Part shown: positions 2,608-58,980 of the stretch, one piece after another
Position numbering within the stretch: the first letter of the stretch is position 1
Layout of the letters: every line of letters starts with the position of its first letter
Source of the DNA: an uncultured delta proteobacterium
GTDB taxonomy: Bacteria; Desulfobacterota; Desulfobacteria; Desulfobacterales; JAFDCJ01
DNA length: 64,000 nt
Direction: 5' to 3'
NCBI GenBank assembly: GCA_963769935.1
Contig: CAVYNY010000022.1
Coordinates: forward strand, 710,941 to 774,940
The notes under the pieces: generated by a model
The model's input: only the letters and a program-made list of their open reading frames with translations
What the model was told of the DNA's origin: nothing
Databases searched by the model: none
Program-made: the position numbers and the translations under genes

Positions 2608-2735
2608 TCCGCCGGAGGCGGAGAATTGAAAATTGAATATTGAAAATTGAATATTTTTGGATGTCGCTTCGCTCCGTTTTTCTAAAAATGGCCAGAATTT
2701 CTTAAATATTCAATATTCAATCGAAAATATTCAAT
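2608..2735. repeat. Inverted heptamer-arm element (WATTGAA)n...(TTCAATW)n, preceded by mini-hairpin TCCGCC-GGA-GGCGGA
   Basis: Left arm AATTGAA AATTGAA TATTGAA AATTGAA (2624-2651); right arm TTCAATA TTCAATC..TTCAAT (to 2735). Fills the argJ-pseudouridine synthase spacer. Confidence 0.8.
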
Positions 2736-2746
2736 AATCCATAGCC

Positions 2747-3472
2747 ATGACCCTCATGCGCCTTCAAAAGTTTCTTTCCGCGGCCGGCGTCTGCTCGCGC
2801 CGGAAAGGCGAGGAATACATCAAAGCCGGGCGGGTTGCCGTCAACGGCCAAATTGCAGCTGAACTCGGCACAAAAATTGATCCGGACAGGGATCTGGTGC
2901 AGGTGGACGGAAAATCGGTCAAATCTTCCCAGCCTTATGTTTATATCGCATTGAACAAACCGCAGGAGTATGTCACCAGCTGCAGCCATCCGGGCGAAAA
3001 GGTTGTGATTGACCTGGTGGATATTTCCCAGCGGATTTATCCGATCGGCAGACTGGATAAAGATTCCACCGGCCTGTTGCTTTTAACCAATGACGGACGG
3101 CTGCACCATCGGCTCAGCCATCCCTCCTTTGACCATGAAAAGGAATACGACGTCACCACGGCCCAAACCATCACGGATGGTGCCTTGGCCAAACTGGCCG
3201 CCGGGCTGCCGCTGATGGGCACCAAAACCCGCCCGGCACGGGTCCGTCGGATATCAGGCAAAAGGTTTCGGATTATTTTACAGGAAGGGAGAAACCGCCA
3301 AATCCGCCGCATGGTTCGTAAAGTGGGCGGTCAGGTGACCCGGCTTAAACGCATCCGGGTCGGCGACGTCAACCTGGGGCGCCTGCCCCTGGGAAGCTGG
3401 CGCCATTTAACCGAGAAAGAAACGCATCATCTCCTATCCCCGATTATTCGGGACGAGCAAGGACAAATTTAG
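2747..3472 (+). CDS. rRNA pseudouridine synthase, RsuA/RluB/RluF family with S4 domain
   Basis: MRLQKFLSAAGVCSRR (S4), LNKP, GRLDKDSTGLLLLTNDG, EGRNRQIRRM. Confidence 0.93.
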   Translation: MTLMRLQKFLSAAGVCSRRKGEEYIKAGRVAVNGQIAAELGTKIDPDRDLVQVDGKSVKSSQPYVYIALNKPQEYVTSCSHPGEKVVIDLVDISQRIYPIGRLDKDSTGLLLLTNDGRLHHRLSHPSFDHEKEYDVTTAQTITDGALAKLAAGLPLMGTKTRPARVRRISGKRFRIILQEGRNRQIRRMVRKVGGQVTRLKRIRVGDVNLGRLPLGSWRHLTEKETHHLLSPIIRDEQGQI

Positions 3473-3636
3473 AATATTCTGCGATGTCGACAATTCCTCT
3501 CACTTCTACCTATTTTGCTGAAACTTGGAAACTTTTGTGGTACTATTTTCACAAGGCTTCTGTGAGATCAACGCTTTTTTTTATATTTTTGCTGAGCGCA
3601 GTCTAAAATTGAATAAAAAAGGGTGGAGCAGCAATT

Positions 3637-9010: not shown

Positions 9011-9145
9011 TATTCCATTTTTCCAGTATTCCATTATTCCATGAGTTTTCTGGCGGCAAACACCACCCCTCTCTCCGAGCCGTAGGCTCTGCGAGCCGGA
9101 AGCTGGAGTGAAGTCAAAGCCCGGCCCTCTGGGCCAGGATTCTTT
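9011..9145. repeat. 8-bp TATTCCAN array plus GTAG-hairpin (REP-like) unit
   Basis: TATTCCAT TTTTCCAG TATTCCAT TATTCCAT (9011-9042); CGTAGGCTC-TGC-GAGCC hairpin (9081-9097), related to 58862-58878. Confidence 0.55.
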
Positions 9146-10257: not shown

Positions 10258-11453
<1,196 letters not shown>

Positions 11454-11472
11454 AAGCTAAGGAGTCCTTCAG

Positions 11473-11622
11473 GTGAGAATAATTGTTACCCTTGCATGCA
11501 CTGAATGCAAACGCAGAAATTACTCGACAACCAAGAATAAGCGCACGACGCCGGATAAGCTGGAATTTAGCAAATATTGCCGGTTTTGCCGCAAGCATAC
11601 GCCGCATAAGGAAACAAAATAG
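11473..11622 (+). CDS. rpmG: 50S ribosomal protein L33 (Zn-ribbon form)
   Basis: Manual translation from [52 protein letters not shown]. Confidence 0.95.
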
Positions 11623-24585: not shown

Positions 24586-24957
24586 ATGCCGACAATCAAC
24601 CAGTTAATTAGGAAGGGCCGCAAGCGGATCAAGAAAAAAACCAATACACCGGCCCTCAAGAGGGCGCCCCAGAAAAGAGGGGTGTGCACCCGTGTTTATA
24701 CATCCACGCCCAAAAAGCCGAATTCCGCCCTGCGCAAAGTTGCGCGCGTTCGACTAACCACCGGTGTTGAAGTTACCGCATATATTCCCGGCATCGGGCA
24801 TAATTTGCAGGAGCACTCGGTGGTTCTGGTTCGCGGCGGCCGGGTCAAAGACCTGCCGGGCGTGAGGTATCATATCGTCCGGGGAACCCTGGATACGCTG
24901 GGGGTTGAAGATCGAAGACAGAGCCGTTCAAAATACGGGGCCAAAAAACCGAAGTAA
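24586..24957 (+). CDS. rpsL: 30S ribosomal protein S12
   Basis: [30 protein letters not shown]. Confidence 0.99.
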
Positions 24958-24971
24958 AAATGGGATGAAAG

Positions 24972-25563: not shown

Positions 25564-25570
25564 GTCAAGA

Positions 25571-36586: not shown

Positions 36587-37015
36587 ATTATCACCGGCCA
36601 GGGGATCGCGCAAAGCTCCAAAACGTCTCGGCCGCGGCGTAGGATCCGGCCGCGGTAAGACCGCCGGTCGCGGCACCAAGGGATTGAATTCCCGCTCCGG
36701 CGGAGGTGTCCGTCCCGGCTATGAAGGCGGTCAGATGCCGTTGCAGCGCCGTCTGCCCAAGCGTGGATTCACCAATAAATTCAAGAAAAATATCGTGGTA
36801 ATTAATATCCGGGATCTGGCAAAATTTGACAAGGGCAGTGTGGTGGACGCGGCGGCGCTGCTCAGGCGGGACTGGTCAAGGGCAAAAGAGACGGCAGTCA
36901 AGCTTCTGGGACATGGCGAAATCAAAATTCGCCTTGGATGTAAAAGTCAACTCAGCCAGCCAGAGTGCCAGGGAAAAAATTGAAGCAGCTGGCGGCAAGC
37001 GTAGAGGTATTATAA
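36573..37015 (+). CDS. rplO: 50S ribosomal protein L15 (several apparent indels in 3' half)
   Basis: [39 protein letters not shown]-terminal VKLLGHGE and [11 protein letters not shown] lie in shifting frames. Confidence 0.93.
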
Positions 37016-38331
37016 TGATCGGCAGCGGGTTCCAAAACATATTCAAAATACCCGAACTGAAAAAAAGAATTTTTTTCACGATGGCGCTTCTCGTTGTCTA
37101 TCGTATCGGCGTGCATGTGCCGGTGCCGGGTATCGACAGCATCGCGCTGGCTTCATTTTTCAAACAGGCTGAAGGGACCATCTTCGGAATTTTTAATATG
37201 TTTTCCGGGGGCGCTTTCCAAAAGCTTTCCGTGTTTGCCCTTGGCATTATGCCTTACATCAGTGCCTCGATTATCCTGCAGCTTCTGACGGTCGTAATTC
37301 CGCATCTCGAGCAGTTGAAAAAAGAAGGTGAACAGGGGCGCAAAAAGATCACCCAGTATACCCGTTACGGTACGGTGATCTTGAGCATTATTCAGGGATT
37401 CGGTATCAGTGTCGGTCTTGAAAGCATGACCTCACCCGGCGGTGCCCCCGTTGTCATGTTGCCGGGATGGGGATTCCGGTTGATGACCGTTATTACCCTG
37501 ACTGCCGGTACGGCCTTTATCATGTGGCTGGGCGAGCAGATCACCGAACGGGGCGTCGGCAACGGCATATCTTTGATTATATTTGCCGGAATCGTCTGCC
37601 GACTGCCGGCGGCAAGCTTCAATACCGGGCGTCTGTTATCGACCGGGGAGATGGGAATATTTGCGATATTAATTTTAGTCGTGTTAATGGTCGCAGTTGT
37701 CGCGTTTATCATTTTTGTCGAACAGGGACAGCGCCGCATCCCGGTGCAATATGCCAAACGGGTGGTCGGACGCAGAATGTATGGCGGCCAGAGCACCCAC
37801 CTTCCGTTGAAAATAAATACTTCCGGTGTCATTCCGCCGATTTTTGCTTCTTCAATTATTATGTTTCCGGCAACCATCGGCAGCTTTGTTAAAATAAGCT
37901 GGATTCAAAATATCACTGGTGCCATGCGGCCCGGCAATGTTGTTTACGAGCTGCTGTTTGTCGGATTTATATTTTTCTTTTGCTATTTTTACACTGCCGT
38001 CACCTTTAACCCGGTTGACGTCGCCGACAACATGAAAAAAGCGGGCGGGTATATTCCGGGTATCCGTCCGGGCAAGCGCACGGCAGATTATATCGATAAG
38101 GTGTTGACACGCATTACCCTGGGCGGTGCAATTTATGTTTCAGCAGTTTGCGTGCTCCCTTCGATTCTGATCACGAGATTCAACGTACCGTTTTATTTCG
38201 GCGGCACAGCCCTTTTGATCGTCGTTGGCGTGGCTATTGATACGGTAGCCCAGATGGAATCTCATATGTTGAGCCGGCATTATGAGGGTTTCTTAAAAAA
38301 GAGCGGTAGTAAAATGAAAGGGCGATATTAG
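37015..38331 (+). CDS. secY: Preprotein translocase subunit SecY
   Basis: [56 protein letters not shown] overlaps the rplO stop (TAATG). Confidence 0.98.
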
Positions 38332-38333
38332 CT

Positions 38334-38552
38334 ATGGCGAAAGAAGAGGCCATTAAAGTGGAAGGCGTTGTGCTTGAGACTTTGCCGAATGCGATGTTTA
38401 AGGTAGAGCTGGAGAACAAGCACCAGGTGCTGGCGCATATCTCCGGCAAGATGCGCATGCACTTTATTAAAATTCTGCCAGGTGATAAAGTGACGGTTGA
38501 ATTGTCACCCTATGATCTTTCGCGCGGCCGAATAACCTACCGGTCAAAGTAA
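38334..38552 (+). CDS. infA: Translation initiation factor IF-1
   Basis: [32 protein letters not shown]. Confidence 0.98.
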
Positions 38553-38555
38553 GGA

Positions 38556-38734
38556 AATTGAAGATTGAATAATGAAAATTGAATATTTGAGGTTTTCAAT
38601 CTTCAATTATCAGGTGTTGTTGGCGGGACAAATTAAATTTTAACAAGCGACGGGATTATTTGATCCTTTTGAGAATATGGCACAAAATATAATAACGACA
38701 GCATTCCACAAATATTCAATATTCAATTTTCAAT
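38556..38734. repeat. Inverted heptamer-arm element (ATTGAAN)n...(TTCAATW)n between infA and rpmJ
   Basis: AATTGAA GATTGAA TAATGAA AATTGAA ... AACGACAGCATTCCACAAATA TTCAATA TTCAATT TTCAATA. Confidence 0.8.
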
Positions 38735-38750
38735 AAAATAGGAGTTTTAA

Positions 38751-38864
38751 ATGAAAGTCAGAGCATCGACCAAGAAGATTTGCCCCAAATGCAAGATCGT
38801 CAAAAGAAAAGGGGTCGTGCGGGTAATTTGCGAGAACAAGCGACACAAACAGAGACAGGGATAA
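38751..38864 (+). CDS. rpmJ: 50S ribosomal protein L36
   Basis: Manual translation [37 protein letters not shown]. Confidence 0.97.
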
Positions 38865-38877
38865 AGGAGGTTACGTT

Positions 38878-39264
38878 TTGGCAAGAATTGCAGGGGTTGA
38901 TTTACCCAGGAAAAAACGGATTGAAATTGGTCTGACCTATATATATGGGATCGGCAGAACGGCATCCCAGAATATACTTAGCCAGCTTCACATCGATCCT
39001 GAAACCAAAACCGATGATTTGACCGAAGAGCAGATTAACAATATCCGCAAGGCCATTGATAGCAACTATAAAGTGGAAGGTGAGCTCCGTACGGAGGTCT
39101 CATTGAACATTAAACGGTTGATGGATCTCGGCAGCTATCGGGGGCTTCGTCATCGGAAGGGGTTGCCGGCCAGAGGTCAGCGCACAAGCACCAATGCCCG
39201 CACCCGTAAGGGACCCAAACGGGCCGCAGTAAAGAAGAAGGGTGCCGCTACGAAGAAGAAGTAG
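38878..39264 (+). CDS. rpsM: 30S ribosomal protein S13
   Basis: [27 protein letters not shown]. Confidence 0.98.
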
Positions 39265-39392
39265 CTTCTGGTGATTTCGGATTTAGGAATTCGGATTGCG
39301 GATTATTTGAAGGAAGAATATCGTTTTTATAACCTGTCATCTTTAAAAAAATGGTGACTGCCCAAACTATAGATTTATTGCAGGGAAAATTC

Positions 39393-39779
39393 ATGGCTAA
39401 AAAAACGCGGATTAAAAAAAAGGTAAAAAAGAACGTCTCCAATGGTGTGGTTCATATTCAATCGACATTTAACAACACGATTGTGACGATAACCGATTCG
39501 GTGGGAAATGTTGTTTCCTGGTCAAGTGCCGGTGCTCAGGGATTCAAGGGATCACGCAAAAGCACCCCCTTTGCTGCTCAGATGGCAGCTCAGGACGCTG
39601 CTAAAAAGGCCATGGAACATGGAATGAGAACTGTGGAAGTTTATGTCAAAGGACCCGGCCCCGGGAGGGAATCTGCTCTGCGAGCCCTTCAGACCACCGG
39701 GTTCAACGTTGTGACCATCAAAGATGTGACTCCCATTCCTCACAATGGTTGTCGTCCACCGAAACGACGCAGGGTTTAA
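39393..39779 (+). CDS. rpsK: 30S ribosomal protein S11
   Basis: [39 protein letters not shown]. Confidence 0.99.
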
Positions 39780-39780
39780 T

Positions 39781-39838
39781 AGTTAATTGTTATTTGTTAA
39801 GGGTTATTCGAATAACCAATAACAAATAGCTGATAACT
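39781..39838. repeat. Compact inverted heptamer element with almost no spacer, between rpsK and rpsD
   Basis: AGTTAAT TGTTATT TGTTAAG GGTTATT CG AATAACC AATAACA AATAGCT GATAACT. Confidence 0.8.
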
Positions 39839-39861
39839 TCAGTAATACAGGGAGGAAAAAT

Positions 39862-40491
39862 TTGGCACGATATACAGATTCCGTTTGTCGGCATTGCCGA
39901 CGGGAAAATCTAAAACTCTTTCTTAAGGGCGATCGCTGTTATTCGGATAAGTGTGCCTTTGATCGTCGGGGATATCCGCCGGGAGAGCATGGCGAGCGCC
40001 GCAGCCGAAAACTGTCGGACTACGGTATCCAGCTGCGTGAGAAGCAAAAAGTAAAGCGGATGTACGGTCTTTCTGAAAAGCAATTTCATTTGTTTTTTGA
40101 ACGGGCGGATCGTCAGAAAGGCATCACCGGCACCAATCTGCTTGTCTTGCTGGAGCGTCGTCTGGACAACGTCGTCTATCGGTTGGGTTTTGCCAACTCG
40201 CGGGCCCAGGCCCGGCAATATGTTCTCCATAAGCACTTTTTGATTAACGGAAAACGGGTCAACATTCCGTCTTTTCTGGTCAAAATCGGCGATACTGTCG
40301 AGGTGCGCGAAAAAAGCAAAAAGATACAGTCGCTGCAGGACTCAATGGATGCGGTGGTTCGCAGAGGTGTTCCCCAATGGCTTGATCTCGAAAAAGATGC
40401 CATGAAAGGCAACATAAAGGGATTTCCGGTGCGTGAAGATCTCACCATGCCGATGCAGGAACAGCTCATCGTTGAGCTTTACTCCAAATAA
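39862..40491 (+). CDS. rpsD: 30S ribosomal protein S4
   Basis: [29 protein letters not shown]. Confidence 0.98.
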
Positions 40492-40714
40492 TATTTACCA
40501 ACTCGTTTTTATCGGGTTGTCGTTAGCGGGTTATGGGATTCCAGGTTCAGAGGTTCAAGGATCGACGTCGAAGAATGGCCGACGGTTTCTGAGGAGTGAG
40601 GGCCAAACGCCGGAAAGTTGAACCTGATGCCGCCTGTCGTTTTTGCTACCGGGGCCTGAGTGACCGCAGATTGCGGTCGAAAAATCAAAACCTGAAATAG
40701 TCAGGAGATTAAAA

Positions 40715-41734
40715 ATGCCGTCAGAGGACCTTATGTACATGAACTGGCAAGAAATGATGATGCCAGAAAAAGTTCAGGTTACCAGCAATCCATCCTATGG
40801 GAAATTTGTTTGTGAACCACTTGAAAGAGGCTTTGGGATTACAATTGGCAACTCGCTGAGAAGAATCATTCTTTCTTCTTTGTATGGTGCCGCCATTGTG
40901 TCGGTAAAATTTGATGCAGTGATGCATGAATTTAGTGCTATCCCAGGCATTCTGGAAGACGTTTCCGAGATTATTTTGAATTTAAAAGAAGTGCGATTCA
41001 AGGTTGCCGATCCGGAACCCAAGATGGTGCACATTGATACAAGCGGTGAAAAAGAAGTCATGGCCGGCGATATTATCAGCGACGACGGCAGATGCGAAGT
41101 GCTCAACCCCAAGCAGCATATCGCCACGCTTTCCGATCAAGCGGTTCTCAAAATGGAGATGAAAGTTCAGATCGGCAAAGGCTATTCGCTGGCTGAAGCC
41201 AACAAGGATGAGGATGCACCGGCAGGAACCATACCGATTGATTCCGTTTTCTCACCGATCAAGCGCGTTAACTTCACGGTTGGAAACGCCCGGGTTGGCC
41301 AGCGCACCGACTATGATAAACTTACTCTGGAAATCTGGACGGACGGCAGTATTGTGCCGGAGGATGCGGTGGCCTATTCGGCCAAAATTTTAAAAGAGCA
41401 GATGTCAATGTTTATCAACTTTGATGAAAAGGCTGAACCCAAGCAGCCCAAAAAGGCCGAAGACCGGGAGTCACCGGACTTTAATGAAAACCTTTACCGC
41501 AGTGTTGAAGAGCTTGAGCTTTCCGTCCGCAGTGCGAATTGCTTGAAAAATGCAGATATTAACAAAATTTATCAACTGGTCAGCAAAACTGAAGCGGAAA
41601 TGTTGAAAACAAAAAATTTTGGCCGAAAATCACTGAATGAGATCAAAGAAGTATTATCTGAAATGGGCCTTTCGCTTGGGATGAAGCTTGAAGGGTTTAC
41701 GCCGTCCGAGGAAGAAACTGAAGAAGGAGAGTAG
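40715..41734 (+). CDS. rpoA: DNA-directed RNA polymerase subunit alpha
   Basis: [47 protein letters not shown]. Confidence 0.99.
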
Positions 41735-41742
41735 GCAGCGCT

Positions 41743-42579
41743 ATGAGACATCGTAAAGCCGGAATAAAACTGAATCGAACCACTAGTCATCGCAATGCCA
41801 TGTTCAGAAACATGGTGACTTCATTGCTTAAATATGATCGTATCCAGACCACCGAGACCAAAGCTAAAGAACTCAGGCGCTGGGCGGATTACTTGGTTAC
41901 ATTGGCCAAGCGGGGTGACTTGCACGCCAGGCGTCAGGCCCTTGCCATTGTGAGAGAAAAAGAGGTTGTGCACAAATTATTTGAAAATGCTGCCGAGCGG
42001 TTTGGTGCAATTGCCGGCGGCTATACCCGAGTCGTTAAACTGGGAAGGCGGCCGGGCGATGCCGCGCCGGTATCGCTGATTGAACTGGTGGTGTCGCAGG
42101 ACACCCCAACGAAGAAAACCAAAAAGAAAAAAACTAAAGCCAAGGCGGCACCCCCGAAAGCGGCCGATGATAAAAAAGCCGCGGCCGAGGAGAAGACGGA
42201 AAAAGGCGAGGACCAGAAGCCGGCAAAAACCGCCAAAGCAAAAGGTGCTGCGGCTGGAAAAGCGGCCAAGTCCGGAGTGAAGACCCAGAAGACGGCTAAG
42301 GCCAAAGCCGAACCCAAGGAAGCGGGCGATGCGGAGGCGGAAAAACCTGCTGCCAAGGAGCCTCCGAAAAAGAAAGCCACCACCAAAAAAGCAGATAAAA
42401 CGGATGCGGACACGGAAGATACAGCTGGGATGAAAACCGGCGAGGCCGCGAAGGAAGATAAGGCTGAAAAAACGGCCAAGGCTGCTCCCGAAAAAAAGGC
42501 CGCGGCTAAAAAAGAGGACGCCCCCGATTCCGCGAAAAAAAAGGAAGCGAAACCCAAAAACATCGAAGAAGACAAGTAG
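41743..42579 (+). CDS. rplQ: 50S ribosomal protein L17 with ~160-aa Lys/Ala/Glu-rich C-terminal tail
   Basis: [32 protein letters not shown], followed by low-complexity tail. Confidence 0.97.
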
Positions 42580-42622
42580 CCTCCAACCGTTGGTTCATAT
42601 TCGTTTGAAGGCTGAGCAAATA

Positions 42623-42661
42623 AAAGCCCCGTCGCTGATGCGACGGGGCTTTCTGTTGTTT
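42623..42661 (+). terminator. Rho-independent terminator of the alpha operon
   Basis: AAAGCCCCGTCGC-TGAT-GCGACGGGGCTTT followed by CTGTTGTTT. Confidence 0.85.
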
Positions 42662-42751
42662 GGTTGAAATGCCTGCCATTTGGGATAGATCGAAAATTAC
42701 CGGCATAACCTATTTTTTAATAAAAATGATTAGCGTCCATAATTTTAGGCA

Positions 42752-43015
42752 TTTTAGTGCATTTTAGGCACTTTAGACATTTTTTCTAAAGCCTCCTTCG
42801 CCGCTTCTTTCACTTCTGCGTTATATTCTCCGGCCAGCACCTCTTCCAGCCATGCTGCGCCCGGCGGTCACCGATTTTCCCGAACATATAGAGAATATCT
42901 CCTTTCACCTGGTCGGGCTGCCGGTGAAATCCTTCCCATAAGAAGTTGATTACTTCGGCTGCCATGGTGCGGCCGCGGCCGGTTATTTCTGCCACCACCC
43001 GCAACGCGCACCGCG
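42752..43015 (-). pseudogene. Truncated, frameshifted HEAT-repeat-like protein fragment
   Basis: RVVAEITGRGRTMAAEVINFLWEGFHRQPDQVKGDILYMFGKIGDRRA / AWLEEVLAGEYNAEVKEAAKEALEK. No upstream coding continuation; 3' end runs into 9-bp TTTTAGGCA repeats (42743-42784). Confidence 0.45.
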
Positions 43016-43102
43016 AAACCTATGGAGAGCCAAAGGTCATTGACTAATCGCTTTTGACGGTGATATGGTTCATTTCTCAAATAGGAGAAAGGAGAAAAAC
43101 CG

Positions 43103-43606
43103 ATGAATACCTCAAAAATCCTGCAGGATAAGATTGTGCTGATGGTCGATGATGAGGTGGATGTGACGGATACCGTGAGCGAAGTCCTGGATATGTGCTT
43201 GGTCCGCACGGCGAATGATTACGATACGGCGCGTCAATACTTGATGAGCTACACCTTTGATATCGTTATTCTGGATATCATGGGGGTAAACGGCTTCGAG
43301 CTCTTGAAAATTTCCGTCAAACGCGGCTTTCCTACCGTCATGCTGACGGCCTATGCCTTGACGCCCGAAGCCCTCGAAAGATCCATCAAACTGGGAGCGG
43401 TCTCCTTTTTACCAAAGGAAAAAATGAGCGAGTTGGATGATTTCATCGCAGATGTTGTCCTCAAAGGCGGTCAACCGGTGTGGGGAAAACTTTTTGACAA
43501 GCTTGGCGGCTTTTTTAATAAACACTTTGGACCGGACTGGAAAGAACGCAACAAATTTTTCGAGGAATTTGAAAAAACCATTCTGCTGCAAAAGAATGAG
43601 AAATAG
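43103..43606 (+). CDS. Single-domain response regulator (receiver plus short aromatic tail)
   Basis: VDDE, ILDIMG, MLTA, LPK; no DNA-binding domain. Confidence 0.88.
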   Translation: MNTSKILQDKIVLMVDDEVDVTDTVSEVLDMCLVRTANDYDTARQYLMSYTFDIVILDIMGVNGFELLKISVKRGFPTVMLTAYALTPEALERSIKLGAVSFLPKEKMSELDDFIADVVLKGGQPVWGKLFDKLGGFFNKHFGPDWKERNKFFEEFEKTILLQKNEK

Positions 43607-43644
43607 TAGATTAACTCAAGACGCAAATGCACACCAAACACTAA

Positions 43645-43800
43645 GGGTTCACGAAAAAATTAGTTCACAATTTTAGGCGTTGCGGCGCCCGGCTGGCAAG
43701 GCGCGAAAACGCAGGAATATCTGGATATTCCGAGCTTTCGCAACGCAGCCAGACGGGATGCAGCGGCGTATAAAATGTGAAGTTATTTTTGAGTGAGCCC
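43645..43800. mobile_element. MITE-like 156-bp palindromic element flanked by TAA
   Basis: Ends GGGTTCAC...GTGAGCCC with ~32-bp imperfect TIRs; central GGAATATC-TG-GATATTCC; TAA at 43642-43644 and 43801-43803; no ORF. Confidence 0.7.
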
Positions 43801-43891
43801 TAAGCACAAAATAACAGACACGCTGGCTGATACAAGCTCAGCAACCCCAGCGTTATGGCCGGCTTAAATTGCCGGGGAGGTCTACCAAAAC

Positions 43892-44803
43892 TTGCCTGTC
43901 TCAAAGCTGTTACCCCTTCCTGAAACCATCCAGCGGTTTGTTCCCGACGGCAGTTCGGTCGCCCTGGGACTTTCGCTTGAATCTCTCATACCTTTTGCCG
44001 CCGCCCATGAGATTATCCGGCAGCACAAAAAAAATCTCACTTTAATCGGACCGATATCCGATATTTTGTTTGATCAGGTTATTGGCGGCGGATGCGTGCG
44101 GCATGTCCGGGCGGCGTGGGTTGGAAATGTCATCACGGGCTCCTGCTACAATTTTCGTCGGGAAATCGAGACCGGCTGCCTCGCAATAGAGGACCACTCC
44201 AATCTAACCCTGGCCATGGCGCTTCGCGCCGGCGCCATGGGAGTTCCCTTTATGCCCGCCCGCACAGCGCTGGGCAGTGATCTGTTTAAGACCAATACTG
44301 CTTTGAAAACGATAATCTGCCCCTTTACCGGTGATCGGCTGACTGCTGTAGCGGCAATCACCCCCGATGTTGCCATCGTTCATGTTCAGCGTTCGGATGA
44401 ATATGGCAATGCCCACGCCTGGGGCAACCTGGGAGTAGCCCGTGACGCCTGTCTGGCCAGCCGCCGGGTTATCATTACGGCTGAAGAAATAGTGTCTGCG
44501 GATTTAATCAGCCGTGATCCCAACCGCGTGATAACGCCCGGGTTTCGTGTCAGTGCCGTGGTTCATTCCCCGTGGGGAGGACACCCGTCCCCGGTACCGG
44601 GCTGCTATAACCGTGATCATCAGGCCTTTATCGACTATCGCGACGAGAGCCAAACTCCGGCGCTGTTTGCGGATTGGCAGAAACGCTGGGTGGACGGCAT
44701 CCGCGGTCCTCAGGAGTACTTGGATTTGCTGGGTCAGGAACGGTTGGAAGGGTTGACCATAAAAAATCATGATTGGTCGGAACCGGTTGATTATGGATAT
44801 TAA
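43892..44803 (+). CDS. CoA-transferase subunit A (glutaconate CoA-transferase GctA-like)
   Basis: PFAAAHEIIRQ, LRAGAMGVPFMP, PDVAIVHVQRSDEYGNA, IITAEEIV, GGHPS; TTG start. Confidence 0.88.
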   Translation: MPVSKLLPLPETIQRFVPDGSSVALGLSLESLIPFAAAHEIIRQHKKNLTLIGPISDILFDQVIGGGCVRHVRAAWVGNVITGSCYNFRREIETGCLAIEDHSNLTLAMALRAGAMGVPFMPARTALGSDLFKTNTALKTIICPFTGDRLTAVAAITPDVAIVHVQRSDEYGNAHAWGNLGVARDACLASRRVIITAEEIVSADLISRDPNRVITPGFRVSAVVHSPWGGHPSPVPGCYNRDHQAFIDYRDESQTPALFADWQKRWVDGIRGPQEYLDLLGQERLEGLTIKNHDWSEPVDYGY

Positions 44804-44804
44804 C

Positions 44805-45197
44805 GGGGTGCGGGTTGCGCGTTGCGGGTTGCGGGGTATTCGATTGCGGATTTTGGATTGAAAAGACTTGAGTGCCAAGTTGCGGATTGCGAGTGGGGCG
44901 CCCGGGCGTGCCGGTTCATAGCTAATAGCTGATAGTTGATAGATGATAGTTCATTGTTGATAGTTGAGGGTTGGCAGCGTAGGGAGCATAGACTGGGGTA
45001 TCTGATATAAGGTTTAAGGTGTACGGTGTAAACGATTTTGACAGTGGGAGCGGTTTTTAACCGCGATTAACTCGGTCTGGCAGATACCTATGGTCGTGGC
45101 TGCAACCCAATCCTACTAAAAGTCAATCATCGTTTTTTTAGGATCAGATATCCTATAACCTGTACTTAACCCGTAACCCGCAACCCGTAACGCGCAA
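44805..45197. repeat. Nested composite of several heptamer arrays around a REP-doublet-like core
   Basis: Outer (GGTTGCG)n / (YAACCCG)n arms; inner GATTGCG, TGATAGT and TAAGGTK arrays; central GTGGGAGCGGTTTTTAACCGCGA ... TCGTGGCTGCAACCCAATCCTAC (45044-45116). Confidence 0.75.
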
Positions 45198-45247
45198 CAG
45201 ACGGCCCAGACAATTAGAAGTTGCCTTAATTGAAGAGAATAAAATTT

Positions 45248-46024
45248 ATGCACAACCACCCTAAAAGCTATAATCCCTCCCTGCTGATGATTACGGCGGC
45301 CGCTCGGGAAATTGCCGATGGAGAGGTGGTTTTTGTCGGCATGCGCCTGCCCCTGCTCGGTTTTCTGCTGGCCAAAAGCACCCATGCGCCTGAAGCCATA
45401 GGGGTTTATGAGTTGGGCATTGTGCGCAATACGGTTGCGCCGGAACCGATTTTGACCATGGGAGATTTGCCGAACCTGCACCGCGCCCAGTGGCTGGCCG
45501 ACACGGCCGACGCCATGGGATTGCTGCAGCAGGGAGGGGTGGATGTCAGTTTTATCGGCGGGGCCCAGGTGGATCGTTTCGGCAATCTAAATACCAGCTA
45601 TATCGGAGGCATCGAAAAAATCGAAACCCGCCTGCCGGGCAGCGGCGGCGCGTGTGATCTGGCCTGCCTGGGAAAGCGGCATATCATAATCATGAACCAC
45701 CAAAAAAGACGCTTTGTCCCCAGGGTGGACTATATAACTTCCCCCGGTTACGGCAATGGTGCCGGCTGGCGCGTTCAGATGGGTCTTCCAAGGGGGGGAC
45801 CCGCTGCCGTCATTACCACGCTTGGTGTATTGCGCTTTGATCCGGCTACCTGTGAAATGGTCCTCAGCGCAACTCACCCCGGAGTGACCGTCGAGCAAGT
45901 CTGTCAAAACACGGGGTGGCCCCTAAAGGTTGCCGATGACTTGGCTGTGACGCCGGCGCCAACCTCAAAAGAACTGGAAATGATCCGACGATTTGATCCC
46001 GCGGGGTACTGGTCAGGGGACTGA
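45248..46024 (+). CDS. CoA-transferase subunit B (GctB-like)
   Basis: VFVGMRLP, VYELG (putative catalytic Glu), GGAQVDRFGNLN, RLPGSGGACD, VDYITSPG. Confidence 0.88.
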   Translation: MHNHPKSYNPSLLMITAAAREIADGEVVFVGMRLPLLGFLLAKSTHAPEAIGVYELGIVRNTVAPEPILTMGDLPNLHRAQWLADTADAMGLLQQGGVDVSFIGGAQVDRFGNLNTSYIGGIEKIETRLPGSGGACDLACLGKRHIIIMNHQKRRFVPRVDYITSPGYGNGAGWRVQMGLPRGGPAAVITTLGVLRFDPATCEMVLSATHPGVTVEQVCQNTGWPLKVADDLAVTPAPTSKELEMIRRFDPAGYWSGD

Positions 46025-46195
46025 CAGATTGACGAATGACAAATGACAAATGACGAATGGCAAATTGAGGATTTTAATCTTTAGGATTTTCTCTTGAAAT
46101 AGAAAACATTGATGTGATATAGCCACAAATATTTAAACGCTCTTTGGAAAATGAATGGGTTTTAGGGTAAACGGTTGAACTACTAAAAGGAGGTT

Positions 46196-49867: not shown

Positions 49868-49903
49868 ACCCCTGATTCCTGCTGATTTTCCGAGCTTTCT
49901 TGC

Positions 49904-49968
49904 TTGACACACCTTCCGCCTTCCTTTATATTCGAAATCTTAAACTTTAAAATCGTATACAGTATACG
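49904..49968 (+). promoter_or_regulatory. Sigma70 promoter plus palindromic operator upstream of the glutaryl-CoA dehydrogenase gene
   Basis: TTGACA (49904-49909), N17, TATATT (49927-49932); palindrome CGTATAC-A-GTATACG (49954-49968). Confidence 0.65.
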
Positions 49969-50080
49969 GTTACTTTATTGATGTTCCGATGATGATGATC
50001 CGTTTCTTTGATCGCCGATTTTAGCCGTTTTGGACAACAGGAATACCGATTTAACAAAAATATAATCAGGAGGATTTAAA

Positions 50081-51246: not shown

Positions 51247-51387
51247 CCGTTGGCCCGTTGGCCGGTTTGCCCGTGTGCCGGTTAGGCGGTTCACCCGTTT
51301 AGCGGTTAATCCGCCGCATCACATTTACTGATTAAATCGATTTAGTCCTTTTTAACCGGCAAACGGGCCAACCGGAAACGGGCTAAC
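51247..51387. repeat. Inverted 8-bp-arm element (CCGTTGGC)n...(AACCGGCA)n
   Basis: CCGTTGGC CCGTTGGC CGGTTTGC CCGTGTGC CGGTTAGG ... AACCGGCA AACGGGCC AACCGGA AACGGGCT. Confidence 0.75.
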
Positions 51388-52253: not shown

Positions 52254-52333
52254 GGGGAGCAATCTGCAAATTCCACTATTCCAACGTTCCAATATTCCAT
52301 TTGGGGCGAAGTTCCAAACATAAGGAGATCGAT

Positions 52334-53345: not shown

Positions 53346-53422
53346 CACGAAAGCGCGAAAGCACGAAAGCACGATAAATAGATAAATTTAATTGCGAGTT
53401 TTCCAAATTTCGTGGTTTCGTG
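53346..53422. repeat. Inverted 8-bp-arm element (CACGAAAG)n...(TTTCGTG)n
   Basis: CACGAAAG CGCGAAAG CACGAAAG CACGA ... TTTCGTGG TTTCGTGA. Confidence 0.75.
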
Positions 53423-53456
53423 ATGAAATACCAACTACAAAGTAGAGGAATCTTGA

Positions 53457-55127
53457 ATGGACGAAACCAGAGAAGCGTTGGAGTTTGATGTGCTTTTTGT
53501 CGGCGGCGGCCCGGCCAATCTGGCCGGTGCCATCCATTTGTCGAATCTGGCACGGCAGAAGAAAATGGAGATCGAGGTTTGCCTGATAGAAAAGGCGGAA
53601 ACCATCGGCGCCCACTCCTTGAGCGGGGCTATCTTGGACCCTGTTGCCGTGAAAGAACTCGTACCGGATTATTTGACCAAGGGGTGCCCGATCGAACAAT
53701 CCGAATGCCGGGATGAATTCTACTATCTGACCCGTACCCGCAAATTTGGCGTTCCGTTTACCCCCGGTTACATGCACAACGATGGATGTCATATCATCAG
53801 CCTTTCAAAATTCTGTGTCTGGCTGGGGGAAATGGCCGAAGAGCTGGGCGTCAATGTATTTCCCGGTTTTGCCGGAACAGAGGTGCTCTATGACTCGGAC
53901 GGCAACCGAATCATCGGCGTGCGAACCGGCGATAAAGGCATTGACAAAGACGGTAATAAACGCTCCAACTTCGAACCGGGTGTCGATCTGAAGGCCAAAA
54001 CAACCGTCTTCGGTGAAGGACCCAAGGGCAGCCTGCTGCGCGAGGTGGGCAAAAAGCTGGGCATATTTGAAGGTAAAATGCCTCAGGTGTTTGAGACCGC
54101 CGTCAAGGAAGTGATCGAAATTCCGAAATCCAATGCTTTCAACTCCTCAGCGACGACGGTCATGCACAGCTTCGGTTATCCATTAGGCCTGGATACCAAG
54201 GGCGGCGGATTCCTCTACAAGATGAAAGACAACCGGGTGGCGCTGGGGTTCGTGGTGGGGTTGGAATATGAAGATTCCCTGCTGGAACCTTACCAGGCCT
54301 TTTTGAGTTTTAAAAGACATCCGCTGATAGCCGAGATCATAAAGGGCGGCAAGGTGCTGCAGCAGGGGGCCAAGACCCTGTCGGCCGGCGGTTTTTATAC
54401 CATGCCGCGGCTGGCGGTGGACGGTGCGGTTTTTGTCGGGGACAGTGCCTCCATGCTGAACATCCAGAGGTTGAAAGGCATACACACAGCCATGAAATCC
54501 GGCATGCTGGCCGCCGAAGCCATCATCGAAGCGCTTGAGAAAAATGATTTTTCCAGAGAGGCATTAAGTCTGTATGAGCGGAAGGTTTCCGACAGCTGGA
54601 TTCAGAAAGAACTTTATGCCGCGCGCAATTTCAGCCAGGCGCTCTCTAAAAAGGGAATCGGCAAATTTATCACGATCGGCGCTCAGTATCTGAGCGGCGG
54701 CCGGGGATTTATCGATGCGATGCCCATTGAGGAGGATTGCACCACTTTGAAACCCCTGGAGGGCCGAATCGCAAGCCGGACCGAATCCCCGGAAACTCAG
54801 GACTTTGACGGCAAGCTCTACCTGGATAAGCTGACCGGACTTTACCTTTCCGGCACCTCCCATGAGGAAAACCAGCCCTGTCATCTCAAAATTCCGTATC
54901 CGGACCTCTGCATGACCGAATGCTACAATAAATTTGGCAGTCCCTGCACGCGTTTCTGCCCGGCGCAGGTGTATGAACTGGAAGAGGATCCGGATGGAGC
55001 CAGACGGTTGAAATTGAATCCTTCCAACTGCCTGCATTGCAAGACTTGCGAGATCAAAGATCCGCTTAGAAATATCATCTGGACCTGCCCCGAAGGGGGC
55101 GGAGGACCTAAGTATTCTATTTTGTGA
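53457..55127 (+). CDS. ETF:quinone oxidoreductase (ETF-QO family, FAD plus C-terminal 4Fe-4S)
   Basis: VGGGPA, HSLSGA, KGIHTAMKSGMLAAE, FCPAQVYE, NCLHCKTCEIKDP, PEGGGGP. Confidence 0.93.
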   Translation: MDETREALEFDVLFVGGGPANLAGAIHLSNLARQKKMEIEVCLIEKAETIGAHSLSGAILDPVAVKELVPDYLTKGCPIEQSECRDEFYYLTRTRKFGVPFTPGYMHNDGCHIISLSKFCVWLGEMAEELGVNVFPGFAGTEVLYDSDGNRIIGVRTGDKGIDKDGNKRSNFEPGVDLKAKTTVFGEGPKGSLLREVGKKLGIFEGKMPQVFETAVKEVIEIPKSNAFNSSATTVMHSFGYPLGLDTKGGGFLYKMKDNRVALGFVVGLEYEDSLLEPYQAFLSFKRHPLIAEIIKGGKVLQQGAKTLSAGGFYTMPRLAVDGAVFVGDSASMLNIQRLKGIHTAMKSGMLAAEAIIEALEKNDFSREALSLYERKVSDSWIQKELYAARNFSQALSKKGIGKFITIGAQYLSGGRGFIDAMPIEEDCTTLKPLEGRIASRTESPETQDFDGKLYLDKLTGLYLSGTSHEENQPCHLKIPYPDLCMTECYNKFGSPCTRFCPAQVYELEEDPDGARRLKLNPSNCLHCKTCEIKDPLRNIIWTCPEGGGGPKYSIL

Positions 55128-55257
55128 ATTGAAGATTGAAAATTGAATATTTAAGGCGTTCCGTCTTTTTAATTTATTGGGACTTTCATTATCTAAAAAA
55201 AGCTGAAAACGACAGCATCCCACAAATATTCAATCTGCAATCTTCAATATTCAATTC
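55125..55257. repeat. Inverted heptamer-arm element (ATTGAAN)n...(TTCAATM)n
   Basis: AATTGAA GATTGAA AATTGAA TATTT ... AACGACAGCATCCCACAAATA TTCAATC TGCAATC TTCAATA TTCAATT. Confidence 0.8.
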
Positions 55258-56348: not shown

Positions 56349-56395
56349 CATTCCATTTGGGGCGAAGCCCCTAACTTGACTTCGTCGGTGCGTCT

Positions 56396-58708
56396 ATGAC
56401 CCGCAAGGAAAGAGACATCAGGCCGGAGATCGAAGAAACAAAAATCCAGAAAGACCGCTACCGGGTGCTTATCGAGGATGTGGCCGATGGATTTTACGAA
56501 GTCGACCTGAACGGAAACTTCAAGTTTTTCAACGATGCGCTGTGTCGAATTTTCGGATATGCGAGAGAGGAGATTCAGGATCACAATTTCACCGAGTTCA
56601 TGGATGAAGCCAATGCCCGCATTGCCTACGAGTCATTTAACCGGATTTATACAACCGGCGAGGGCATTGTTGATATCAAGTGGCAGATCTCCCGCAAGGA
56701 TGGCAAAAATCGGCATCTGGAGATATCCGCCAACCTGATTGCAGATGAACAAGGTCAAGGCATCGGATTCAGGGGTATTGCCCGGGATGTCACTGATCGG
56801 GTTTTGGCCGAACATGCCCTGAAAACCTCTGAAGAGTGTGCCCTGGAGCTGTCTCAGACCAGCCGCCTCGCCGAACAGCGCTACCTCGGCTTCCTTAATT
56901 TTTTGCCCTACCCCGTATTCGCTTTTAATCTGGACGGTACCGTATCCTATCTGAATCCGGCCTTCGAGAAAGTTTTCGGCTGGACCCTGGCGGAATTGGA
57001 AGGTAGGATCATACCGTCGTTTATACCCGACGATTTGAAACAGGCGACCCGTGAGGGCATTCAGCAGTTGTTCGATGAAAAAGTTCTGCACAGCTTTGAA
57101 ACCAAACGTTTCACCAAGGACGGCCGTCTGTTGGATATCGTCATCGACGGCGCTATTTTTTATGATGAGGAAAATCAGCCGGCCGGGCAGGTAATTACGC
57201 TGAGGGACATAACCCGCGAAAAGCGTGATGCCAGAATCAACCAGGCGCTTTTGCGCATTGCCAGAGCGCTGCATCAATATCGCGGTCTGGACGAGCGTCT
57301 TGAGTTCATCACAAAAGAAGTTCAGCAGTTAATGCAGGTGGAAGGCGCATCCGTCATTTTGCTGGATGAGGATAAAAAGGAGTTTTTCTTTCGTGAATCG
57401 GCCTATGATGATGGTGAAACCGGCCGGAAAATGAAGGTCATCCGATTCCCGGTTGACAAAGGAGTGGCGGGCCATGTTTATCGGACCGGCAAGCCCTACA
57501 TAGCGCCGGATTACAGCCAAGATCCTTATTTTTTTCGTGAGGTGGACGAAAAATCCAGTCATCAGACGCGCAGCATGCTGGACGTGCCCCTTCAGATCCA
57601 GGATCGTCTGATCGGCGTGCTGTGCGCCGTGAACAAGAAAGACCGAATCTTCGATCAGCCGGACATTGATCTGCTGACAGCCATCGCCAACTATGTCGCG
57701 CTCCCCATTGAAAACGCCGCCATCAATGAAGAGCTCAAACGCTCTTATCAGGAGGTCCAGAACCTGAACCGCGCCAAGGACCGTGTTATTCATCATCTTT
57801 CCCACGAACTGAAAACGCCGGTATCCATCTTAAGTGCCTCCCTGAGCATTCTGAGAAAAAGGCTCGAAGGGCTCGAGGATCGCAACTGGGATAACATCAT
57901 TGATCGCGCGCAAAGAAACCTGGACCGCCTGCTTGAAATGCAGTATGAGATTGAGGACATCCTGAGGAAAAAGGATTATAAGATCCATTATATGCTGTCA
58001 TCATTGCTGGATGCCTGCGCTGATGAACTGGAGGCCCTGGTAACCGAGCACCTGGCAGAAAATGACATTATTGATCGGCTGCGGCAGCATATAGACAACC
58101 TTTTCGGACGTTACGATGTCAAATTAGAGACAATCCGGCTGGATCAGTTTGTCGAGAAGAAAATCAAGGCTTTGCAGCCGCGTTTCGCCCATCGCCGCTG
58201 CCGGGTCGAAACCCGGACAGTGGCCGTACCGGCTATTTGGATTCCGGTGGATGTTCTCGATAAAATTGTCGAAGGCCTGGTGCGAAATGCTGTCGAGAAC
58301 ACCCCGGATAGCGGCCGCATCATCGTTTCGGTGAGGGAAGGAAAAATCGGACCTGAATTGGAGATCGCCGATACCGGTATCGGCATCAGCGAGCAAAATC
58401 AGCGGCTGATATTTGATAATTACTTCACGGCCTATGACACCATGCAGTATTCCTCCCGCAAACCCTACGATTTCGGCGCCGGCGGCAAAGGATTTGACTT
58501 GCTGCGGATGAGAATTTTCTCGGAGCGCTATCATTTCAAACTCAACATGAGATCCAAACGCTGCCGCCTGATATCAGAGGAGGCGAATACCTGCCCGGGC
58601 AATGTTGAAGAATGCGTCCGTGACAGGCAATCTGAGAATTGTCTGGATTCAAGTGGCACCACGGTGACGGTTCAGTTTTATCCGGCAGAGTGGTTTGAAA
58701 AACAGTAA
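56396..58708 (+). CDS. Cytoplasmic PAS-PAS-GAF sensor histidine kinase
   Basis: Two PAS domains (FNDALCRIFGY; LNPAFEKVFGW), GAF (GVAGHVYRTG, IGVLCAVNK), H-box HLSHELKTP, N-box LVRNAVENT, DTGIGI. Confidence 0.92.
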   Translation: MTRKERDIRPEIEETKIQKDRYRVLIEDVADGFYEVDLNGNFKFFNDALCRIFGYAREEIQDHNFTEFMDEANARIAYESFNRIYTTGEGIVDIKWQISRKDGKNRHLEISANLIADEQGQGIGFRGIARDVTDRVLAEHALKTSEECALELSQTSRLAEQRYLGFLNFLPYPVFAFNLDGTVSYLNPAFEKVFGWTLAELEGRIIPSFIPDDLKQATREGIQQLFDEKVLHSFETKRFTKDGRLLDIVIDGAIFYDEENQPAGQVITLRDITREKRDARINQALLRIARALHQYRGLDERLEFITKEVQQLMQVEGASVILLDEDKKEFFFRESAYDDGETGRKMKVIRFPVDKGVAGHVYRTGKPYIAPDYSQDPYFFREVDEKSSHQTRSMLDVPLQIQDRLIGVLCAVNKKDRIFDQPDIDLLTAIANYVALPIENAAINEELKRSYQEVQNLNRAKDRVIHHLSHELKTPVSILSASLSILRKRLEGLEDRNWDNIIDRAQRNLDRLLEMQYEIEDILRKKDYKIHYMLSSLLDACADELEALVTEHLAENDIIDRLRQHIDNLFGRYDVKLETIRLDQFVEKKIKALQPRFAHRRCRVETRTVAVPAIWIPVDVLDKIVEGLVRNAVENTPDSGRIIVSVREGKIGPELEIADTGIGISEQNQRLIFDNYFTAYDTMQYSSRKPYDFGAGGKGFDLLRMRIFSERYHFKLNMRSKRCRLISEEANTCPGNVEECVRDRQSENCLDSSGTTVTVQFYPAEWFEKQ

Positions 58709-58732
58709 ACAGGAGGTTGTCGTTCGTCAATG

Positions 58733-58980
58733 CCGACACCTGACACCTCATCTGAAACCTCCTTAAATTCGATGCCATTTTTACGAAGTGTCTCACCGCT
58801 GAGAGCGCTGAGAGCGCAGAGATTAATTTAACTTTTCTTTCTCGGCGTTCTCCCACCGGGGCGTAGGCCCTATGGGCCAGAGGCGGCGGGCTCTGCGGTG
58901 AACTATTATGTTTCTTTTTCGATCAGACCGGCCGTTGTTTTGGCCGGCGGCTGGGCTGGCACTGACACCTGAAACCCGAA
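58733..58980. repeat. Composite of 7-bp (CTGAMAC) arrays, an inverted 9-bp (GCTGAGAGC) element and a GTAG hairpin
   Basis: CACCGCTGAGAGCGCTGAGAGCGCAGAGA ... TCTCGGCGTTCTC [CGTAGGCCCTATGGGCC] ... CTCTGCGGTG; flanked by CCGACAC CTGACAC and CTGACAC CTGAAAC. Confidence 0.7.

Follow-up and report, generated by a model that had tools for sequence, protein, structure and literature searches.

Inverted arrays of 7-, 8- and 9-nucleotide tandem repeats in the intergenic spacers of an uncultured delta proteobacterium as candidate arms of small palindromic elements

Why do so many intergenic spacers of an uncultured delta proteobacterium, a relative of sulfate reducers, even those inside its ribosomal operons, hold short tandem arrays laid out as inverted arms? 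The question arises from a 64,000-nucleotide stretch of its genome (the window; G000:C22:710941-774940, G000 being the genome under study), part of an assembly of 7.99 Mb in 41 contigs with ~51% G+C. Arrays of 7-, 8- or 9-nt units had been noticed there in about 25 spacers and interpreted as a non-autonomous mobile or RNA-structural system that targets gene 3' ends, possibly the empty form of elements that carry a small cargo gene elsewhere (the original prediction). This interpretation was supported in part: dispersal, turnover, a bias toward gene 3' ends and a cargo gene of the TIGR02436 four-helix-bundle family were borne out, a RAYT gene was not, and the role of the RNA stays a prediction. 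With moderate confidence, the arrays are read here as the arms of small palindromic elements, likely gene-less (non-autonomous) relatives of a TIGR02436 cassette; once transcribed with an operon, they would form long hairpins. That they are copies of this cassette without its gene is likely because such arms enclose the gene elsewhere in the genome.

Tandem arrays were called by Tandem Repeats Finder (TRF) at a score of at least 30, and an intergenic set of 1.35 Mb was compared to five dinucleotide shuffles. Intergenic arrays of period 7 (1111 compared to 30-44 in shuffles), period 8 (540 compared to 35-61) and period 9 (320 compared to 27-40) were 9- to 30-fold in excess genome-wide, confirming that they are far commoner in real intergenic DNA than in composition-matched sequence. 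The whole genome gave 1553, 873 and 868 TRF rows of periods 7, 8 and 9, respectively, with more than 1200 distinct units, and arrays were present in 1562 of the 4805 intergenic regions of at least 60 nt on a crude open reading frame (ORF) map. The window itself held 60 TRF rows. Among the 25 sites originally named, a row lay at or near 18 (2624, 9011, 15511, 27216, 32677, 33717, 35124, 38556, 39273, 39781, 42743, 44805, 46027, 51247, 52270, 53346, 55125, and 58794); at four (13372, 24972, 25571, and 29808) the threshold was reached only by the spacer's other array, the named left tract being weaker and visible by eye; and at three (19886, 40514, and 58733) there was no row at a score of at least 30, only two or three loose units.

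The inverted layout was also above expectation. An inverted partner, defined as a reverse-complement local score of at least 24 within 500 bp, was found for 680 of 2302 arrays genome-wide, compared to 163, 49, and 127 for the direct, reversed, and complemented controls, and 208 of 1856 neighbouring array pairs matched as reverse complements compared to 48 as direct repeats. Merging yielded 496 paired elements with a median core of 78 nt, including eight strict pairs in the window (2624/2705, 15511/15600, 32677/32782, 35131/35219, 38557/38711, 44814/45167, 51247/51354, and 55128/55224). The claim of inverted arms is therefore real for these pairs, whereas about half of the named sites are solo arrays without folding.

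Arms of this kind enclose the TIGR02436 genes of the genome and its relatives. A profile search identified seven such genes in the genome, and each of the seven lay between tandem arrays built of mutually reverse-complementary units. TIGR02436-type genes were present in all 23 genomes of the genus that were searched (1-17 each), where 31 of 36 loci had an inverted upstream/downstream flank score of at least 30 compared to three of 36 in the reversed control. Beyond the genus, 24 loci from five genera of the same order were compared, and the majority carried reverse-complement-unit arrays on both sides. Synteny displayed filled and empty states of the same sites: the locus on contig C20 held arms plus gene in six genomes (one partial), spacers of 0-12 nt in five, and a 93-nt array relic in one, while at the locus on contig C13 two genomes carried the filled form, two had tight spacers of 1 and 7 nt, L153 had a solo ATTCAAT array, and L154 had paired arms without the gene, carrying the inner motif seen beside it. 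The junction next to the C13 gene (G000:C13:92564-92884) recurs in the window at 38557-38735 and 55125-55255 and in the rplN-rplX cores of relatives. These gene-bearing, empty, solo, and tight states, together with the seven of seven genes lying between arms, favour the suggestion that the arrays are empty versions of a cargo element and that TIGR02436 is the cargo. For the 27 gene pairs at non-syntenic loci whose protein score ratio was at least 0.6, mean arm similarity was 85 compared to a background of 37; gene and arms thus travel together over short times, since close paralogues at unrelated loci keep related arms. We take the family to be related to Avd, the accessory protein of diversity-generating retroelements (DGR).

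Further observations concern these genes. Six copies, at least 99% identical, of an element of ~1.3 kb or more were identified on six contigs of a relative (G007, L141-L146) with a four-helix-bundle gene at one end; the gene adjoins an IS91-like zinc-finger transposase ORF recognised by eye and is a passenger, a special case. Genes of 400-580 aa bracketed by matching inverted arrays were found at G000:C9:119921-121804, C34:73835-75815, and C3:96624-98085, where the arrays are probably arms of two neighbouring elements and the gene is not cargo. A ranking of the units flanking four-helix-bundle genes among the genome-wide families was dropped, as size-biased sampling favours abundant units by chance.

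Most paired arrays belong to dispersed multi-copy families and are not the product of local slippage alone, in line with the mobile-type claim: 393 of the 496 paired elements had at least five look-alike places (alignments of at least 45 nt) and 203 had at least five near-full-length copies. Unmasked searches with the window spacers at 2602, 55128, 38553, 58709, 53300, 42730, and 9000 found 47-161 similar places each. An earlier conclusion from array-masked BLAST (E <= 1e-6), that cores are unique and arrays originated in place, came from a search that was too insensitive and was overturned by the unmasked searches. In family A, the commonest family (~112 nt), nine copies with unrelated flanks shared a common order of unit variants in both arms, a core of ~48 nt, and the short inner motifs GGWATTCTRTC and GGATGTCGC. 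Motifs were enriched in the inner flanks of arrays genome-wide, GGWATTCTRTC occurring 96 times against a naive expectation of ~15 and 67 times within 25 nt of an array. The family-A arm pattern had 173 matches here, 0-4 in seven genomes of the same genus, and 30-116 in seven genomes of other genera, with at least one match in 84 of 301 genomes of the order (the reversed control pattern mostly gave 0); such patchiness is the burst pattern of a spreading element. The description of a unit that differs between sites within one architecture holds for the truly site-specific arrays, mostly in ribosomal operons, whereas many other sites have common units, variant order, and inner motifs.

Other repeats were met alongside family A. 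The hairpin CCGCC-N-GGCGG, which adjoins only a subset of family-A copies, was rejected as the true mobile core, since 80 of its 401 genomic copies were intergenic, a share that other GC palindromes equal. In a second large family (e.g., G000:C1:122494 and C18:99257) the arms consist of C/A-rich AAATYMC units, so that their polarity is the reverse of that in the G-rich majority; its inner motif, AATGACCRAAA, was seen on 49 arm sides. A separate genome-wide family of ~35 nt has the form TCCGCC-N3-GGCGGATCC preceded by a T-run.

Turnover was followed in genomes of the genus and order and in assembled contigs of RNA and DNA runs, which give no transcript ends and were read only over stretches that they cover; the related strain behind the spacer comparison was represented by contigs 90-99% similar. 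Spacers differed between relatives: from one strain or species to a close relative, a whole element could be there, be missing, or have other sequence in its place. At infA-rpmJ, the left arm and core (150 nt, 38560-38711) were missing in contigs of three RNA runs, the right array staying in place, and at rpsK-rpsD a 63-nt hairpin was replaced by seven letters in a contig of metatranscriptome X4 while contigs of X3 and X5 broke at both ends of it. In the related strain, the rplE-rpsN core (33741-33873) was replaced by 98 other letters between preserved arms, positions 35128-35267 of rplF-rplR by 72 other letters, and the etfB-etfA site held 193 other letters. The dispersed palindromic repeat at 43641-43807, which has no heptamer arrays, was absent from that strain (a 165-nt skip). 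The rplN-rplX spacer measured 156 nt here, 21-229 nt in 18 genomes of the same genus, and 0-38 nt in nine of 11 other families of the order, bearing out at this place the claim that arrays widen otherwise tight spacers. Among the 18 genus members it contained GTTATTG, ATGACGA, or TTGAATA units with intermediates, and in two it had no array (21 and 36 nt). The GGTTCAG unit of rplE-rpsN was found in most genus members, repeated a varying number of times; L013 has it just once. Arrays in ribosomal operons recurred at the same spacers across the genus and faded with distance from it.

Changes of exactly 7 nt were identified in related-strain contigs at 32677 (one unit fewer in the contigs of three RNA runs that bridge the rplN-rplX spacer), 44820 (one extra GTTGCGG unit in the contig of one DNA run), and 46027 (one unit fewer in the contig of one RNA run). 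Such one-unit steps, as well as the unit drift through intermediates at rplN-rplX, the variable copy number at rplE-rpsN, the ribosomal-operon arrays without copies elsewhere, the lack of target duplication, and the heptamer excess in many bacteria (Mrazek 2007, as summarised in PMC4679880) would suit local simple-sequence repeats that grow by polymerase slippage and are corrected into palindromes by template switching between the arms, with nothing moving. This explanation was nonetheless considered improbable, as it does not account for the order of unit variants, inner motifs, and 48-nt core kept at unrelated loci, the 393 of 496 paired elements with look-alikes, the presence or absence of whole elements with tight empty sites of 0-12 nt, or the species-specific burst of one arm type. 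Slippage and dispersal both occur, with dispersal the dominant process.

The position of the arrays raises the possibility of a function in the transcript. Gene 3' ends were favoured as predicted, with 1.78 arrays per kb in tandem and 1.51 in convergent spacers compared to 0.78 in divergent spacers. The statement that arrays usually start within a few bases of the upstream stop held for ~11 of 25, which begin at most 8 nt past it (15511, 32677, 33717, 35124, 38556, 39273, 39781, 44805, 46027, 51247, and 55125), and not for the remainder. Genome-wide, distances of 10 nt or less separated arrays from stops in 384 of 2065 cases and from starts in 114 of 1911, starts being unreliable in the ORF map. 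Read inward, the arms contained 8364 G compared to 4493 C (G > C in 363 elements, G < C in 120), and the arrays abutting a stop codon had 11% C with 1220 stop triplets compared to 595 complements of stop triplets, such that the inward-read arm on either strand was G/A-rich, C-poor, and had many stop triplets. Entered from one side or the other, the arms would therefore put a stop into each of the three frames within 21 nt, and landing at gene ends would consequently be harmless. Element orientation relative to transcription is not scorable because a palindrome shows the same arm first on both strands.

Folding was predicted by RNAfold for 24 window spacers, each compared to 60 shuffles, and 12 of the 24 folded better than shuffles (z <= -2.3). 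Of ten array-free control spacers, 43607-43891 had z -7.8, 49868-50080 was borderline (z -2.0), and the other eight were weaker; the first is itself a dispersed palindromic repeat without heptamer arrays, with 79 intergenic BLAST matches and very high multi-copy depth. The long mRNA hairpins of the original prediction are thus upheld as predicted folds for half of these spacers, whereas their RNA role is a prediction and G.U pairs were no commoner than A.C among arm mismatches (210 compared to 191). Contigs from RNA libraries bridged the rplN-rplX spacer, which agrees with co-transcription, and such libraries can hold DNA. In the region 24000-43999, the only strong intrinsic terminator followed rplQ (42623-42652), no array hairpin was among the sites, and the 34 terminator-like sites were no excess over shuffles (26.6 +/- 4.4); Rfam identified tRNAs only and no family matching the array hairpins.

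Host regulatory RNA structures under selection, i.e., processing or stabilising stems, attenuators, or Rho barriers whose abundance reflects use rather than spread, would agree with siting after stops and inside operons, rarity in divergent promoter spacers, persistence in the same ribosomal-operon spacers across the genus, bridging by RNA-library contigs, and a C-poor tract after the stop (11% C) that would disfavour Rho loading. Such a role as the origin of the arrays was judged quite improbable from the lack of G.U excess, the elements missing or replaced in essential operons of related strains, the tight rplN-rplX spacers of two genus members, the half of arrays that are unpaired, and hairpins that are neither terminator-like nor in any Rfam family.

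An equally poor prospect is that the arrays are binding sites for the Avd-like four-helix-bundle or another repeat-reading protein, the inverted layout reflecting protein architecture with neither hairpin nor mobile element. Arrays always accompany four-helix-bundle genes, close paralogues at different loci have related units, and many arrays are solo, as such sites might be; however, more than 1200 distinct units confront seven such genes in the genome, and conserved cores and whole-element presence or absence would be left unexplained. Below a protein score ratio of ~0.6, arm similarity was unrelated to protein similarity, and there is therefore no deep protein-to-unit code.

A RAYT gene typically lies between copies of its own repeat. 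A REPIN-RAYT type system, in which paired palindromic repeats are moved by a domesticated Y1 (IS200-like) transposase, fits the intergenic hairpin-forming inverted pairs, the lack of target duplication, and the 11 Y1_Tnp matches in the genome, and is very improbable indeed since none of the 11 Y1_Tnp (PF01797) genes was flanked by 7-9-nt arrays and there are many arm sequences rather than one per transposase, which dismisses the RAYT candidate of the original prediction.

For the preferred reading, that the arrays are arms of small, mostly gene-less palindromic elements, the build, siting, and later change of the elements are observed, whereas we infer how they move, what the protein does, and what becomes of the hairpins in RNA. 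In each element, tandem units of 7, 8 or 9 nt make up the left arm, followed by a core and the reverse-complement arm. Elements lie mainly in spacers where a gene has its 3' end, often beginning at the stop codon, and those in place change as exactly one unit is gained or lost, as units drift, and as loops are replaced. They would spread by copy-and-paste without target duplication, perhaps through a hairpin intermediate, with the four-helix-bundle protein either taking part in the spread or being cargo only. Transcribed hairpins may meet the fate of the 23S rRNA intervening sequences (IVS), which are cleaved by RNase III, and so be cut or tolerated, and the site-specific arrays of ribosomal operons may be old insertions that have since diverged in place.

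Several results weigh against this reading. No mobilising enzyme was identified, the transposase family examined being Y1, and none of the 11 Y1 transposase genes had flanking arrays; at family-A flanks, neither a target-site duplication nor a target motif was found beyond the unit itself. About half of all arrays are solo. Eleven window spacers, mostly in ribosomal operons, had no similar places in the unmasked search, and the ribosomal-operon arrays, being without copies elsewhere, could have arisen in place. Near-full-length copies were 69-91% identical (median 78%) and therefore no insertion is demonstrably recent; the arm mismatches had no G.U excess and pairing is therefore not visibly kept at the RNA level. 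Since no four-helix-bundle gene was found in the window, nor in 110 ribosomal-operon loci, and seven lie elsewhere in the genome, the window copies are at most gene-less relatives of the cassette. The relation between arm and protein similarity is lost below the ratio of ~0.6 given above, and among five other genomes with a family-A arm burst (two of the assemblies 72% and 88% complete) two, perhaps three, hold a four-helix-bundle gene with such arms. Gene borders derive from the crude ORF map (coding fraction 0.83) with unreliable starts, and the RNA evidence consists of contigs only, from libraries possibly containing DNA.

Among known systems, the gene-bearing cassettes of this genome are built as the 23S rRNA IVS, in which complementary ends pair into a stem, an S23p/TIGR02436-type ORF may lie in the loop, and the spread is patchy and selfish-looking. 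The IVS of Coxiella burnetii is described as 428 nt long; its termini pair over 28 bp, it carries an S23p ORF, and RNase III cuts it midway along the stem. The same report treats a transposition remnant and an ORF needed for mobility as open hypotheses (PMC4990558). The elements here differ in lying between protein genes, in having long arms of 7-9-nt tandem units compared to the unique 28-bp stem described for the IVS, and in existing as hundreds of copies without an ORF.

Heptamer simple-sequence repeats (SSRs) offer a second comparison. Long SSRs with a heptamer excess occur in many bacteria (Mrazek 2007, via the introduction of PMC4679880), the short tandemly repeated repetitive (STRR) sequence of Calothrix is a heptamer SSR (via the introduction of PMC4692102), and TAACTGA direct repeats of Beggiatoaceae are also found in ribosomal operons (MacGregor 2015, PMC4679880). 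Like these, the arrays here are intergenic, present in ribosomal-protein operons, and patchy, with solo arrays just upstream of starts, and like long SSRs of 5-11-nt units they exceed expectation from composition and change length by whole units. In contrast to the one or few units in direct repeat described in those reports, this genome has more than 1200 units, inverted pairing of a third of arrays, conserved cores, and a cargo gene. Xanthomonas genomes contain 70-75 convergent pairs of GGGAATC heptamer arrays each, with possible stem-loops and array lengths that differ between species (Rehm 2015, PMC4692102); this is a single G-rich unit, read in that report as a G-quadruplex former, and the paper's text states that there is no detailed literature on heptamer repeats, finds no link to mobile elements, and does not contain the words S23 and intervening sequence.

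The short, intergenic, palindromic, multi-copy build and lineage-specific bursts also recall REPIN and repetitive extragenic palindromic (REP) sequences with their RAYT genes, as described in PMC3116915, and MITEs (miniature inverted-repeat transposable elements). Family A and others are multi-copy inverted pairs of a conserved repeat that can form a hairpin, as REPINs are, and share terminal inverted repeats and many copies with MITEs, with no target-site duplication; they have no flanking RAYT gene, and their arms are internally periodic and unit-variable. No related full-length element bearing a transposase was identified for the array-armed elements among transposases of the Y1 family. Full-text searches of the literature found no paper in which four-helix-bundle cassettes are tied to arrays of heptamers. 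The small dispersed repeats known from Nostoc, reportedly described by Elhai et al. in 2008 as very small mobile repeats with tandem heptamers and hairpin contexts in cyanobacteria, possibly overlap with the elements described here.

A tentative and, as a whole, doubtful extension is that the heptamer repeats of bacteria (STRR, TAACTGA, GGGAATC, and those here) may all stem from a single, widespread class of mobile cassette with hairpin arms, being either its arms or its offspring without a gene; the full form would carry an Avd-like TIGR02436 gene, and the rRNA-borne form would correspond to the 23S IVS. Such cassettes would insert into transcribed spacers and hairpin loops without target duplication and bring stops in all frames.

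The window copies all lie between protein or tRNA genes and none in a 23S rRNA helix. By NCBIfam names, the window runs from argJ, a tRNA cluster, and a first tuf copy through nusG-rplKAJL-rpoBC, rpsLG-tuf-rpsJ, and the S10, spc, and alpha operons to rplQ, ending in genes for a CoA-transferase, a TRAP transporter, glutaryl-CoA dehydrogenase, etfBA, and sensor kinases. The RplX relatives in named public contigs are metagenome-assembled genomes of uncultured Desulfobacterales, including 'Olavius sp. associated proteobacterium Delta 1'.

Several of the window elements and arrays outside the ribosomal operons have similar places elsewhere in the genome. A complete family-A member in the spacer between argJ and a pseudouridine synthase gene (2609-2736) comprises a GC mini-hairpin (2609-2623), a left arm of ATTGAAW units (2624-2655), a core of ~49 nt (2656-2704), and a right arm (2705-2736), with an arm score of 32, z -2.6, 161 similar places with full-length coverage, and the unit-variant order and core of eight other copies. 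A family-A-type element (55125-55255) starts from the stop codon of a FixC-like gene (score 40, 156 places, z -3.3). The element of ~100 nt at 53346-53430 has a left arm of CACGAAAG x3.6 and right tracts of TTTCGTG (59 places for the whole element, z -4.0), and that of ~250 nt at 58797-58990 has a GCTGAGAGC array, a GC-rich core, 112 places in alignments of up to 251 nt, multi-copy depth, and z -3.2. Downstream of the glutaryl-CoA dehydrogenase gene, 8-nt arms of the CCGTTGGC / GCCAACGG type (51247-51387) had a score of 43, z -7.3, and 14 places. Two solo arrays are likewise repeated, TATTCCAT x4 upstream of the tRNA cluster (9011-9042; 47 similar places; z +0.4, no fold) and TTTTAGGCA x4.6 downstream of the rplQ terminator (42742-42783; 56 places).

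Between two CoA-transferase subunit genes lies a nested element (44804-45198) with outer arms of GGGTTGC (44804-44838) and GCAACCC (45167-45198) and inner arrays including GTTGATA (44914-44967; score 40, z -3.9). A solo TGACAAA/TGACGAA array (46022-46065) begins inside a stop codon (z +2.3), and a solo ATTCCAAT array (52270-52299) in the etfB-etfA spacer is directly upstream of the start codon.

In the ribosomal operons, the infA-rpmJ element (38557-38735) consists of an ATTGAAK left arm, a unique core of 130 nt, and an ATTCAAT right arm (score 33), its arms and junction matching 118 places. The rplN-rplX spacer (32677-32801) has a left arm of GTTATTG x4, a core of 78 nt, and a TAATAAC-type right arm (score 30, z -4.5); rplF-rplR (35124-35250) has a TGAATAT array right behind the stop and an ATTTGTC-type right array (score 25, z -2.3); and the TGTCAGT arms 3' of rplL (15511-15622; arms 15511-15541 and 15600-15622) scored 26 with z -5.5 and no other copy. 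The 63-nt hairpin of rpsK-rpsD (39780-39844) has GTTATT/AATAAC-type units about a 2-nt centre (z -5.6). In rplE-rpsN (33717-33905), a GGTTCAG(A) array runs from inside the stop codon and CTGAACC-type right tracts lie near 33875-33905. The rplK-rplA spacer (13374-13475) has a GTTGCGG-type left tract and a CGCAAC-type right array (13427-13475), is site-specific with two other places, and has z -1.9. No other copy was found for rpsL-rpsG (24971-25076; weak GTTAT-type left tract, right array 25029-25076, z -1.5) or rpsG-tuf (25571-25655; ATTGA-type tracts, GC-rich centre, right array 25633-25652, z -3.0). A AGGGGTTTG array plus a short complementary tract in rpsJ-rplC (27216-27285) gave z 0.0, a hairpin without significance; in rplB-rpsS (29808-29886) a GGTTCAG-like array is followed by an unrelated, non-complementary TAACTAA array (29860-29886; z -0.9); and rpsM-rpsK (39273-39304) holds a solo GATTTCG x4.6 array (z +0.3).

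The genes of this region had peculiarities of their own. In both tuf copies (10258-11476 and 25608-26868) the coding sequence is distributed among two or three frames, and two further genes, rplR and rplO (35267-35636 and 36211-36983), look frame-broken as well. Assembly indel errors are likelier than pseudogenes because single-base indels at 35400, 35651, 36130, and 36514 set independent contigs, including those of a DNA run at least 99% identical, apart from the window. The str operon reads rpsL-rpsG-tuf-rpsJ with no fusA between rpsG and tuf (25563-25608), and the 278-aa L17 from rplQ (41743-42579) is extended far at its C-terminus and scores under the cut-off of the NCBIfam 'sunset domain variant' model.

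Heptamer repeats have been tallied in many genomes and never explained. This genome is an unusually rich case, with ~2000 intergenic arrays, ~500 paired elements, clear families, and gain, loss, and unit slippage at the strain level, and it combines residence in essential ribosomal operons with a consistent tie to a small four-helix-bundle gene family. In practical terms, the arrays break short-read assemblies, mislead the calling of start codons and ORFs, and serve as fast strain markers. If the link to the four-helix-bundle genes is causal, the elements would represent a new kind of small mobile element, the four-helix-bundle family would gain a testable role, and there would be a reason for the swollen operon spacers of some lineages.

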